A stretch of 64,000 bases of DNA from Octopus vulgaris (Eukaryota). The translations under genes were made by a program, and so were the position numbers. The stretch lies in the NCBI GenBank assembly GCA_951406725.2, contig OX597814.1, positions 67,332,001 through 67,396,000 on the forward strand, given 5' to 3'. Under the pieces are notes generated by a model, which did no database searches, had not been told where the DNA came from, and worked only from the letters and a program-made list of their open reading frames with translations. Shown one piece after another: positions 9,875 to 60,678 of the stretch. Position 1 is the stretch's first letter, and every line of letters starts with the position of its first letter.

Positions 9875-9952
9875 AATTCGAGGAGACTACATCAGCAGAA
9901 GAGTTAGAGTCTGTAGTCGAAGAGACGGAGAATCTAGAACTAGAGACACCAG
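9875..9952 (+). CDS. Acidic-repeat mini-exon, type A copy 1 (78 nt, phase 1-1): (E)FEETTSAEELESVVEETENLELETP
   Basis: Polypyrimidine tract plus TCTCTAG acceptor, CCAG|GTATGA donor, 26 codons without a stop, paralogous to 16 other exons. Confidence 0.85.
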
Positions 9953-10225
9953 GTATGAATTATATACACGTACATACATACATGCATGGATACAAGCATG
10001 CATGCATACATACATACATACATACATACATACATACATACATACATACATGCACGCGCGTCACAATGTCTATAAGAATTATTCAAATCTGTATTTCAGA
10101 TGCGTTGTATGATTGTGTATGGGTTATGTATTATGTCCCAAATATTCAAATAACAAAAAAAAAAAGAGAAAAAGATAGCAAATTTTAATATTTAACATTA
10201 AAAGTTTATATATTTATTTCTCTAG

Positions 10226-10303
10226 AATTCGAGGAGAATACGGTACAAGAAGAGTTGGAATCAGAGGCCGAAGAGACGGAGAATGCAGAGCTGGAGACTC
10301 CAG
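10226..10303 (+). CDS. Acidic-repeat mini-exon, type B copy 1 (78 nt): (E)[25 protein letters not shown]
   Basis: TTTCTCTAG acceptor, CCAG|GTAACG donor, open frame. Confidence 0.82.
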
Positions 10304-10565
10304 GTAACGATATGTGTATGTACGTTTGTATGTATGTATGTATGTATGTATGTATGTATGTATGTATGTATGTATGTATGTATGTACGTATATTTATATG
10401 TATATATATATACATATATATATATATATATATATATATATATATATATATATATATATATATGTATAATGGACTCTTCCGTCGAAGACGACGTATGAGT
10501 GTTCAGCTTTTGCCGAACGACCTGCAAAAATAACTTGCTTATAGTAATCATATGTACGTGGTGTA

Positions 10566-10825
10566 AACGGAAACTGAAAGAAGCCCGTCGTAAATATGTG
10601 TATATTCGTGTCTGTTCCTGTGTTTGTCCCCACAACATCGCTTAACAACCGATGCTGGTGTGTTTACGTCCCCGTAACTTAGCGGTTCGGCAAAGACTGA
10701 TAGAATAAGTATTAGGTTTACAAAGAATAAGTCCTGGGGGTCGAGGTGCTCGACTGAAGGCGGCGCTCCTGCATTGCCGCAGTCAAATGACTGAAACCAG
10801 TAAAAGAGTAAAAATGAGTAAAGAG
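10566..10825 (+). mobile_element. 3' part of a tRNA-derived SINE (copies ~14236-14495, ~18700-18958, diverged ~23745-24000)
   Basis: Matches the reverse complement of the full copy at 61361-61770; GTAAAAGAGTAAAA tail. Confidence 0.85.
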
Positions 10826-11190
10826 TATATATATATATAGAGAGAGATATAGTTAATTCAAATAAAGAATTCAAATAAACGGATTAAAAAAAAACGAAAA
10901 AAAAGGAAAAGAAAGAACGTGATGATATGAATAAGAAATGTATTAGATTGACGCTCGGTGAAAGGAGAGTTTAATGTGTGGACCATAGCTCTTCGTCTGA
11001 AAGGAGAAAAAGAAATGTCCAACGAAGGAGAAGAAGAAGAAATCGCCAACGGCCCAAGTGTGGTTACATTGCTGAAGTGTAAATGTTGTAAACTGTGTGT
11101 GTGTGTATATATATATATATATATATATATATATATATAGAGAGAGAGAGAGAGAGAGAGAGAGAGAGAGAGAGAGAGAGAGAGAGAGAG

Positions 11191-11579
11191 ATGTACTTTC
11201 ATAGCAAGTGGCCTGATCTGAGATCGTGGGCTGGAACGAAAACAATTGCAGCGTGGAAGGTGTTTACAAGCCATTTAAGAAACACACAAAAACCGTTAGA
11301 TTCACTTCAACATTTAAATTTAATTTGCCAAAATATTTTTGTCGCTTTGAGACCGCGACCTGTCACTGACAAAAATCATCTGAGCATCAGAGCATTAGAT
11401 GCAGCGCGGAATTTTGTCGGTGAACAGGTCGCAGTCTCAAGGCGTCAAAAATATGTTGGCAAATGAAATTTAAATGTTGAAGTGAATCTAACGGGTTTTG
11501 GCTTATAAACACCTTCCACGCTGCAATTGTTTTCGTTGCAGCACGATCTCAGATCAGATCACTTGCTATGCAAGTACAT
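11191..11579. mobile_element. Palindromic MITE/foldback with ~170-bp inverted arms (copies 15284-16049 and 20035-20691 with a duplicated left arm; half copy ~290-388)
   Basis: ATGTACTTTCATAGCAAGTG...CACTTGCTATGCAAGTACAT, flanked by (GA)n on the left and (CT)n on the right. Confidence 0.85.
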
Positions 11580-56881: not shown

Positions 56882-56956
56882 AATCTAAGGGGTACACCAT
56901 ACCAGGAGTGTTGGAGTCTGAGGCTGACAAGACGGATGGTTTTGAAGTGGACCCAG
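56882..56956 (+). CDS. Diverged repeat mini-exon (75 nt): (E)SKGYTIPGVLESEADKTDGFEVDP
   Basis: TTTCTCTAG acceptor, CCAG|GTATGAATTAC donor context identical to the family, open frame. Confidence 0.78.
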
Positions 56957-59420
56957 GTATGAATTACATGAATGTATATGTATATATATATACATTCATG
57001 CAGATATATACATACATAAACACACTCATACATTTCTACATACATGCACACATACATACATACGCACATACACACACTCATACATACGTACATACATATA
57101 TACATATGCATACATCTGTACATATATACACATATATACATATATACATGCATACACTTACATGCATGCATACATACATACATACATACATACACACATA
57201 CATGCATACATATCAATAGACTTACTAATAGATTTATATATTTAAGCACATGTACATACTTGTATGGATATATGTGTGTGCGCGTGTATATTTATATATA
57301 AGTACAAGTGAAATTAACATGCAAAAAATGAAAGAGCTACACAGATATATCACAATCTCTTTAGATTTCATTGCAGTGTCGGAAAGGCTTCCGTTGCACT
57401 AGCAGATATCTCACTATCCCAAGCCTTTTACCTTCCAAGCTGTACGCATTGCATGATTCATGCAGTGAAAACTGAATTAGTGAATGTTTGCAGATGCCAC
57501 ACTGGAATGGCCATAATTTGAATTTCCGAGTAGTTATCTTTTATGAAATGACCTCATGCAGTTGTAGACATACATAAATACATATATAATCAGCCGAAAT
57601 TACTACGATGATCCGGTTCTTGACTGAAGACTGAGGGTTTCGAATGTCCTGTCCGTGTTTATTGTATCGTCTTCAAAGAGTTATACGTTCTTGTCCATGT
57701 TGTATTTTTCTACATACCTTAATATATATATGTATATATATATATATATCTGTAAATATAATGTAACAATTATTCGGTAGCCAAGATAAAACTCTGAGTT
57801 TCGGATGCCGAAGTGAAAATCCACATCAGTTATCTGGCCATCTGAAAAATGCTTGTGTTATAGACCGCTATTTATACAAAAGCGCTATTTCGAATGACCG
57901 CTAATTAAGATTAAAAGTTCATAGTAAACGCGTATATATATATATAAATGATAAGGGTAAAAAACTGATATTAATCTGATTAATATCAAGTTAAACCAGT
58001 GGCCTAGCATATTGAAAAAATCTGAAGATTCAGAAAAATTATATTACATGCATATAAGCGGGATGACCACTAGGTGGACATGCAATATGCTAAATGTAGA
58101 CCCCATATGGTCTGACCATTAAAAAAAAATTGTCATGAAAATTCGGCAAACGCCGGAACGTAAGCGAGCAAGACAAATGAAAAGACACAAAATATAATGA
58201 TTAGTCACATACCAGGTTTCATTGTTACTGTTTACATATTTACATATGTAAGTGTCCGAAAATTATCAGTGCGACCGTCATAGAAAATATAAATTGCAGA
58301 ACTGTATACGAAAGAGAACATGCATTCAGTTGTCATATTTGGAGGCATGTTTCAAATGTCTTCGTTTTGGCGCACCAAAGCCGGGAATGATTCTGCAGAA
58401 AATAATTTTCTCATCGAAGCCTGCCGGTTAAAGAACATGGTTATTTAAATTTAAATAATAAGGGTAAAAAATTGAATATTAATTTGATTAGTATCAATTT
58501 AAACCGGCTTCCAGTATGCTAAATGTAGACCCCATATGGTCTACATTTAGCATATTGGATATCCACCTAGTGGTCATCACTCTTACATACATACATACAT
58601 ACATACATACATACATACATACATACATACATACATACATATATATATATATATATATATATATATATATATATATATATAACATAAGGGGGATCAGCCA
58701 TCTGTGATCCCCCTTATGTTATAGAGCAGTTACTGTTTATATCTCGCTCAGAGATTTATTATTGTTATTATATATATATATATATATATATATATATATA
58801 TATATATATATATATATATATTCGTTTATTCTTTTACGTGTCTCGAACCTATTCGGAAATTTAGTAAGGCGGTTGGGGTTGAAAATGGTCCAAAAGTTTT
58901 TAATAGGAATGTGAAATTAGTAAAAACAGTGAAACGAATTTATTCCGTAAGAAAATTAGGGAAATATTTAAGGTTAAGAGGAGGTAATAACTAGGGTAAG
59001 GGACAAACTAGGGTTACATCGAACGTTGGACCTTAGCCTATCTCACTTCGGACAACAGGTGGAAAGGCTTAACCACATAAATGAATAAAAATTACACTTA
59101 ACCGATAAGCACTTTATTGTGATTAACACAATTAATTAATACTACAAACGTAATTATTATAAATTATTATGATTAATATAAAACCTTATTGTATCTTCAC
59201 CCCTTCTCCGTCTAAAACCTATTGGCGTATCTCACTGTTACATTTTGTTATTTTATTATTTATCTATCCTATCCCCACCGTACAAAGGATTAATCCACCA
59301 ATTGCTATTTTTGGTTTAGTCATTTACTTATCGTCCTAAAGAGATATGCAAACAAAATGGTATGATTACAACCATATTCAACTTTTTTTCTCTTTTTTCT
59401 CTATGCACTTCTTTATTTAT

Positions 59421-59541
59421 TCTTCACTCTGATGAAGCTCCATGTTTCAGATCGGTTTTATTACCAAATATGATAAATATTTTTAGCGTATCAGTGGCAA
59501 TACCACACAACATTGGAAGCAGAAACAGCTGTTAGATAGGA
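59421..59541 (+). ncRNA. Type I hammerhead motif with a long stem II insert
   Basis: CTGATGA 59429-59435, GCTCCA / TGGAAGC stem II, GAAA-CAGCTG-TT (palindromic stem III), stem I has 2 mismatches. Confidence 0.5.
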
Positions 59542-60503
59542 TGCAGTCTATTTGAATTGAATTAATAAGTAATAATTAATATAAGTCAATTGTTGTTCAT
59601 CGATATTTCTCCATTTCCTGCCTTCTTTAAATTTTGATTCTTGATAAACTCATGCTTATTCTTGTCTTTACCTATAATTTATGAGCATAATATGCTTACA
59701 TATGTATGCCCGTGGTTAAGTATAATTAATATACCGGTAGTGTAATGGATACTTCCAACCCTTAGACGGTTATTTTAACCTGTAAGTCAGCTAACCTATA
59801 TATATATATATGTGTGTGTGTGTGTGTATGTGCGCGCGCACGTCTGTTTGTGTGTATCTGTGTGTCTGTCTGTGTGTATACATATTTCTATTTTTCTGAG
59901 AAATAACTGGTGCTTTGTTAAAAAAATGCAACACAAATATGTGCAATACCTGTTTGGATACAATCAACAAGAAGTGTATGAATATGTCTTTCAGTAAAGC
60001 TTTTATTATTCTACTGGTTTGCTTAGAATATATATTTGCAAGATATATTTTACGTGATCACTTTGCTTGAAAGAAATTACTAGACATTTAAGACCGTCAA
60101 AGAAATATGCACTGGCATAACCAAATACCGCAATATTTGTAAATACATTAAGATTTTATCAACTTAAAGAGATAGCAGCTTTCAAAATACTTGTTCCTAA
60201 ATATTCCAATATTTTAAGAAGAGATATTTAACTATCATATGCGTTGACTGACGGTGCGAGTTTTGTTTTTTAATTTTGTTCAAATATCGGTTTCAAATTT
60301 TGCGCAAGGCCAGCAGTTCGGGGGAAGGGGTAAGATGATTAAATTCACCCCATTGCTCAACTGGTACTCTTTTTATACACCTCGAAAGGCAAAGTCGTGT
60401 TCGGCGGAAATTCTGTTAAAATATTAAGATGGCATAAAAACTCATATTTGATATTTGATATTAGAACTCTGACTAAAAAGTTTCCTCTATTTCGTTTCTC
60501 TAG

Positions 60504-60578
60504 GATTGTTGGAGAATATGGCACCAGATGGGGTAGAAACAACTGGGCTGCAAGTGGAGTATTTAGTAAAGGGTCCAT
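60504..60578 (+). CDS. Most diverged repeat mini-exon (75 nt with donor T|GTAGGT; 79 nt if AG|GTATAA at 60582 is used): (G)LLENMAPDGVETTGLQVEYLVKGP
   Basis: TTCGTTTCTCTAG acceptor; ~600 bp of upstream intron homologous to that of the other exons; open frame. Confidence 0.62.
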
Positions 60579-60678
60579 GTAGGTATAATATATATCAATG
60601 CATACACACACATAAACACATACATACGCACATACACACACACACGTACACACACATACTAACATACACATCCATATA

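Follow-up and report, generated by a model that had tools for sequence, protein, structure and literature searches.

An array of short, phase-symmetric exons in Octopus vulgaris and its predicted secreted, extremely acidic product

The exon array and its locus

The window analyzed here is a stretch of 64,000 nucleotides of the Octopus vulgaris genome (window position 1 is G000:C1:67332001; coordinates below 0 or above 64,000 extend the window numbering along the contig). An earlier note on this DNA had described a hidden gene built from at least 17 short exons encoding Glu-rich modules. Six-frame searches together with an iterated DNA profile located 18 paralogous segments in the window, all on the plus strand, 17 of which are preceded by a pyrimidine tract with an AG acceptor and followed by a GT donor. 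All 17 are phase 1-1 exons, each starting two bases before its first full codon and stopping one base past its last. They measure 78 nt (14 exons), 75 nt (two) or 63 nt (one) and sum to 435 codons without a stop, as the earlier note had stated; Glu makes up 37% of their internal residues. The segments are as follows.

9875..9952, +, 78-nt exon, type A of a two-exon unit
10226..10303, +, 78-nt exon, type B of the two-exon unit
13475..13552, +, 78-nt exon, type A, identical to the exon at 9875
13845..13922, +, 78-nt exon, type B
17965..18042, +, 78-nt exon, type A, identical to the other type A exons
18374..18451, +, 78-nt exon, type B, identical to the exon at 13845
22606..22683, +, 78-nt exon, type A, identical to the other type A exons
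23024..23101, +, 78-nt exon, type B
37373..37435, +, 63-nt exon
38752..38829, +, 78-nt exon
39217..39294, +, 78-nt exon
41487..41564, +, 78-nt exon, inside which (at 41496) a 54-kb duplicate starts
43208..43285, +, 78-nt exon, sequence present in the annotated fragment CAI9715271.1
44557..44634, +, 78-nt exon, sequence present in CAI9715271.1
44811..44888, +, 78-nt exon, sequence present in CAI9715271.1
53521..53568, +, dead copy of 48 nt, acceptor TGG, no GT donor
56882..56956, +, 75-nt diverged exon, sequence present in CAI9715271.1
60504..60578, +, 75-nt diverged exon, doubtful, absent from CAI9715271.1

The count of 17 exons needs qualification. They represent only 13 distinct sequences, eight of the 17 being four recent copies of one two-exon unit (types A and B) whose longer aligned blocks are 93–99% alike. 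The exon at 60504 is in frame (75 nt) only with the donor after 60578, while the donor that matches its paralogues, after 60582, gives 79 nt. The 18th copy, at 53521–53568, is missing 30 nt along with both splice sites. Weak profile matches in the window, such as the one at 33886 (E 0.16–3.7), were dropped, and an Rfam scan of the window gave no matches.

Profile and splice-site scans over 200 kb on each side of the window extended the array to 57 exons on a single strand, from -46,786 to +169,962, with 20 exons upstream of the window (-46786 to -46) and 20 downstream (64804–169962). AG and GT are present in 57 of 57. Exon lengths are 36 nt (one), 54 nt (three), 63 nt (six), 66 nt (one), 75 nt (eight), 77 nt (two), 78 nt (35), and 117 nt (one), so that 55 are divisible by three, and 41 of the 57 are distinct in sequence. 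The ends of the array are diverged, yet phase is retained there and module lengths mostly are. The two 77-nt exons (-27893 and -8874; L041:8507–8583 and its copy) are identical and break the frame in the assembly; the earlier claim that every exon is frame-neutral needs correction for these two copies, which lie outside the window. The 117-nt exon (L019:9174–9290) contains an internal triplicated sub-repeat of nine residues. The count of 57 leaves aside two copies in inverted orientation near +81 kb, an incomplete one at +95.4 kb, and those lacking splice sites (53521, 107428, and 136031).

A 131-base probe searched against the 2.8-Gb genome gave, among the best-scoring candidates, 40 of 40 matches at C1:67.29–67.45 Mb, all on the plus strand. 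The array is a single locus, and neither a chance pattern nor a dispersed repeat. A dispersed repeat or transposon, which the earlier note had named as the alternative to a gene, is expected to leave genome-wide copies on either strand with random frame breaks, and the concentration of all matches among these candidates at one plus-strand locus rules it out.

Part of the array may be very young. Window positions 41496–95410 and 95401–160298 (G000:C1 67.37–67.49 Mb) form a complex, near-identical duplication, with a part of 34 kb with eight mismatches, an inverted part of 9 kb with nine, and a part of 10.6 kb with none, as well as a 213-bp piece which is exactly one exon with its splice sites. 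It is either a very recent template-switch duplication or an assembly error, and the 54-kb duplicate alters the protein by nine exons. The array grows by tandem duplication of exon-plus-intron units, rendered harmless by the frame symmetry of the exons, and copies that lose their splice sites drop out of the gene.

Several other features accompany the array. A run of about 900 bases of AC/AT/TG microsatellite (8547–9465) lies shortly before the first exon unit of the window, and microsatellites come after many exon donors. The 14-kb intron holds broken reverse-transcriptase-type frames on the minus strand (29450–31810), which we take to be LINE-like (LINE, long interspersed nuclear element) from their translation. 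Further upstream, three head-to-tail LINE copies of 5.9 kb with 90–94% identity (-90000 to -72400; L012–L013) are found just before the predicted first exon described below. The upstream neighbour is an intronless-looking FUN14-family frame on the plus strand (L009:2760–3200, about -117 kb; Pfam E 3e-22). Downstream, two diverged calmodulin-like exons lie on the plus strand at 260112–262130 (L040), the first of them 144 nt long with a phase-1 acceptor; no upstream exon of their own was found in the 80 kb examined.

Splicing and selection

Four sequencing runs (X1, X4, X7, and X16) were mapped as contigs to L041:1–8900, which contains eight upstream array exons. In X4, all eight exon bins had a summed depth of 19,500–280,000, whereas sixteen intron bins did not exceed 2.6; the remaining six bins overlap exon ends or contain repeats covered in all four runs. 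An exon joint from 1857 to 4381 of L041, flanked by GT and AG, was present in 14 X4 contigs (with the cut shifted four places), and a loose end before 4377 agreed with the expected upstream exon with one mismatch, compared with three for the next best candidate. Thus, the array is spliced in at least one run, which is likely RNA, and the spliced gene claimed by the earlier note is borne out on upstream members of the array. At the exon of 77 nt, eight X4 contigs are one base longer than the assembly, which may reflect an allele, a species difference or an assembly error. A second X4 joint, in nine contigs, seemingly skips five exons; it is indistinguishable from a joint of adjacent exons because its short side has 27 letters and the candidate exons first differ at letter 30, and the combinatorial exon skipping suggested in the earlier note gains no support from it. 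X1, X7, and X16 had no cover in four to five of the eight exon bins and no exon joints listed. Such contigs show presence rather than absence, and restriction to a tissue is only a hint.

The earlier note had also contrasted a preserved exon frame with indel-rich introns and had suggested that the substitution rates of the two be compared. Over 210 pairs of 78-nt exons, we found 0.05 gaps per pair in exons versus 3.0 in the 78 nt of upstream intron, and substitutions of 0.214 versus 0.286. Selection was further analyzed on the 19 distinct 78-nt core exons, with forward neutral simulations on the same tree. The pooled ratio of nonsynonymous to synonymous differences (pN/pS) was 0.35–0.53 depending on transition weighting (0.43 with the middle weighting, versus 0.91 +/- 0.26 under neutrality). 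Differences at third codon positions (0.32) exceeded those at the other two (0.20 and 0.17). None of the 19 exons has a stop, compared with 5.1 expected neutrally (P 0.025), and acidic residues per 25 codons number 10.7 versus 8.1 (P 0.001). These data indicate purifying selection on the frame, as had been proposed, and on acidity as well. It is very probable that the array is part of a real coding gene.

Predicted gene ends, protein, and homologue searches

The earlier note had called for a search of the flanks for unique terminal exons and for signal-peptide, transmembrane or Ig domains; a predicted signal peptide and a predicted terminal exon were obtained, but no transmembrane segment in the gene model and no Ig domain in flanking open frames of 75 or more codons. 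The predicted first exon (34 nt, at -70,411; L013:9589–9622) is single copy in the genome, starts with Met-Lys and ends at a strong phase-1 donor. A predicted second exon of 33 nt, phase 1-1, lies at -53,804 (L015:6196–6228). Together these two exons encode 21 residues with a hydrophobic core ending in Gly-Ser-Ala before the first array exon, a predicted N-terminal signal peptide. By a simple rule, signal-like combinations numbered six of 447 upstream, all via the second exon, versus 0 of 60 and 0 of 328 in controls. The hydropathy of the gene model peaks at 3.2 at residue 6, the next best value being 1.0.

At the other end, the annotation likewise uses the 36-nt exon at 169,927 and the exon that starts at 179,010 (L032:5010). 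The predicted last exon (L032:5010–5269), single copy, encodes a basic tail in a phase-1 frame which stays open for 85 codons, versus 5 and 1 for the others. The 85 tail residues include 22 Lys/Arg, 16 of which fall in seven paired or tripled runs (9.6 and 4.1 in shuffled tails; P 0.016 and 0.029). Both predicted gene ends are, on the sequence features available, probably correct.

The resulting gene model spans 250 kb with 60 coding exons, including the two 77-nt ones. Without these two, the protein has 1,470 residues, or 1,247 if the first copy of the 54-kb duplicate is also left out, with a net charge of -439 or -391, respectively, and an isoelectric point (pI) of 4.05; the array contributes about 1,150–1,360 residues. 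Per 100 residues, the charge stays near -45 for most of the first 800 and fades to +10 to +13 at the end. The model contains 36% Asp+Glu and two Cys in two different exons, and its grand average of hydropathy is -1.1; the array itself has 32% Glu, 3% Lys, and 2% Gly. A chain can hardly fold when so highly charged, and the Atlas model of the annotated fragment has a pLDDT of 0.36, in line with the acidic, disordered product expected earlier. No hydrophobic segment follows the N-terminus in the model, and a membrane stalk is not supported. The suggestion of an extracellular or cation-binding protein gains support from the predicted signal-peptide exons.

Two hypothetical proteins of Octopus vulgaris, CAI9715271.1 (238 aa) and CAI9715272.1 (113 aa), are pieces of this locus. 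They match the downstream half of the array exon by exon, form single-member clusters and cover neither the signal peptide nor roughly the first 30 exons nor the basic tail. The repeat profile matched one protein among 7,999 scored candidates of 77–2,000 residues. The 238-aa fragment matched no longer protein among proteins of up to 2,000 residues, and a search of 1.84 billion representatives returned just this fragment and the 113-aa one; the Atlas matches of the 238-aa fragment were all below 0.8, with TM below 0.4. Neither the two fragments nor the tail scored above the cut-off with any Pfam family, and the tail had no match in Pfam, the protein collection (up to 2,000 residues), Atlas, or PDB. 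Among 208 plus-strand open frames of 75 or more codons within 100 kb on each side, none matched Ig, Fn3, kinase, or SPARC families (shorter exons would be missed); the families matched were retroelement, transposase, FUN14, and EF-hand.

No description of the gene was found in the excerpts of the literature searched. Word searches of a cephalopod venom preprint (10.64898/2026.04.09.716377) and of a salivary-gland transcriptome study (PMC12607849) turned up no acidic repeat protein, although the supplements of either could list the transcript. Within the searches made, there is no homologue beyond the two fragments of the locus. The architecture has precedents, but the protein is without known relatives.

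Interpretation and comparison with known systems

Granins (chromogranin/secretogranin) have a signal peptide, a very acidic chain, and multi-basic cleavage sites; they aggregate with Ca2+ at low pH in secretory granules and are processed by convertases. Both granins and acidic matrix proteins bind cations and undergo charge-driven condensation. The octopus model is suggestively similar to granins in its predicted signal peptide, strong acidity, and multi-basic sites; it differs in that its basic sites are confined to the C-terminal part, in its exon-per-repeat build, and in the lack of a Pfam match for the fragments and tail. As the best of the readings considered, and a serious possibility, we tentatively propose that the locus is one large gene encoding a predicted secreted, disordered, and extremely acidic protein, which likely binds Ca2+/Mg2+ and, together with its basic tail, may condense into the matrix of a secretory granule or an extracellular gel. 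A single tissue or stage would produce the protein in large amounts. Its acidic chain would be the working part through cation binding and charge-driven condensation, and the tail would probably be trimmed at its paired basic sites.

Several points weigh against this proposal. The spliced pattern was seen in one run of four, the RNA nature of X4 is guessed, none of the runs containing array sequence is on record as RNA, and the organism label of X4 differs from that of the other three runs. Mapping allowed 92% likeness, at which paralogous exons pile up, and contig depth is a poor measure of expression. The RNA cover is confined to eight upstream exons, and both gene ends are predictions. In the annotation, where a model terminates at 179010, the last exon is given a different frame that reaches a stop after five codons, and the tail frame alone is weak evidence because an 85-codon open frame follows nine of 121 downstream acceptor-like sites. 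The selection figures lean towards selection, since present-day exons served as the starting point of the simulations and the exons analyzed had been picked as intact; concerted evolution can also bias the simulations. Composition and analogy are the basis of the proposed Ca2+ binding and condensation, and no homologue was found to back the function.

A somewhat unlikely alternative is that the locus encodes a peptide precursor, in which tail peptides (hormone, pheromone, antimicrobial, or salivary) would be the product and the acidic array a neutralizing pro-region. Acidic pro-regions beside cationic peptides are common. The seven multi-basic runs would yield tail pieces of 7, 8, 11, 21, 3, 1, 9, and 9 residues, basic residues cluster beyond shuffled sequences (P 0.02–0.03), and no such runs occur in the first 1,000 residues. 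However, approximately 460–525 acidic residues far exceed what neutralizing the 22 basic residues of the tail would take, no Gly precedes the basic sites for amidation, pairs of a basic residue with Arg alone are not enriched (P 0.12), and the database searches with the tail returned nothing.

The proposal of a condensing acidic protein can also be put in a bolder form, which we regard as rather unlikely: an octopus-specific, bulk-secreted polyampholyte without known relatives, of ~1,300 residues and a charge of -400, built from ~57 interchangeable exon cassettes with a cationic protease-cut tail, whose length and charge would be set by exon skipping and copy number and which would condense by itself into a cement or gel, an independent acidic version of the tropoelastin plan. 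Oviducal-gland cement, as presented in part of PMC8976471, might be a candidate setting.

In amniotes, tropoelastin (ELN) has phase 1:1 introns, exon-pair replication, a basic C-terminus and two cysteines, according to sections of 10.1101/2024.12.03.626628. The octopus gene resembles it in predicted secretion, one module per exon, phase 1:1 throughout, replicated exon pairs, a basic end, and two Cys. In contrast to the octopus protein with its ~36% Asp+Glu, tropoelastin is hydrophobic with alternating lysine cross-link domains. No sequence relation was found, and the likeness is a parallel design.

It is improbable that the product is a dedicated biomineral matrix protein of the statolith or stylet controlling calcium carbonate deposition. 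Acidic, disordered proteins are, in the part of the literature covered, typical of mollusc mineral matrices, and the predicted secretion, pI, Asp+Glu content, and repetitiveness of the model would suit such a role; yet Glu rather than Asp dominates. The excerpt of PMC9122587 used here describes the acidic SCPP proteins of vertebrates as Asp/Glu-rich, with a signal peptide but without the folded C-terminal domain of SPARC, and their genes as derived from sparc-L, with mostly phase-0 introns and rich in Ser-x-Glu. The octopus protein shares with them a predicted signal peptide and an Asp/Glu-rich chain, whereas its gene is of phase 1 throughout, belongs to a mollusc, and encodes 11 Ser-x-Glu in 1,470 residues, that is, 0.7 per 100 residues compared with 1.7–1.8 in Scpp-type proteins (from the same excerpt).

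That the array is a spacer inside a larger protein, either a titin/obscurin-like giant or one spliced to the calmodulin-like exons that lie 81 kb beyond the predicted stop, is highly improbable. The titin PEVK region, as described in passages of PMC5498327, consists of 26–28-residue motifs that are Glu-rich, disordered, and differentially spliced, and the module size is the same in the octopus array, 35 of whose 57 exons are 78 nt long; the calmodulin-like exon at 260112 lies on the matching strand, has a phase-1 acceptor, and could not be assigned an upstream exon within the 80 kb examined. However, the array has little Lys/Val, a predicted signal-like start and a terminal exon flank it, and the annotation also ends its model there. 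A giant muscle protein of the titin/obscurin type is not supported, because none of the 208 flanking frames of 75 or more codons matches and a signal-like N-terminus (rule-based) is predicted, versus an intracellular protein; titin, which the earlier note had offered as an analogy, is not supported as an identity.

It is hardly credible that repeat-driven duplication gave rise to the array as a by-product and that most of it, although transcribed and spliced, is neutral. Recent near-identical duplications, dead copies and the two 77-nt copies would fit such a reading, but pN/pS is below neutral, stops are absent, acidity is retained, and X4 contigs show an additional base in the 77-nt exon.

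PMC3632108, as far as its excerpt goes, deals with how symmetry of exon phase relates to protein disorder. With young, old, and dead copies adjacent, the array described here is a clear case of protein growth by frame-neutral exon duplication. The locus also shows that repeat-rich genes with short exons can be missing from cephalopod gene sets. The protein may rank among the major secretory products of an octopus tissue, annotated only as two unnamed fragments and unrecognized by family searches, and if it condenses under seawater conditions, it would be a new natural coacervate.

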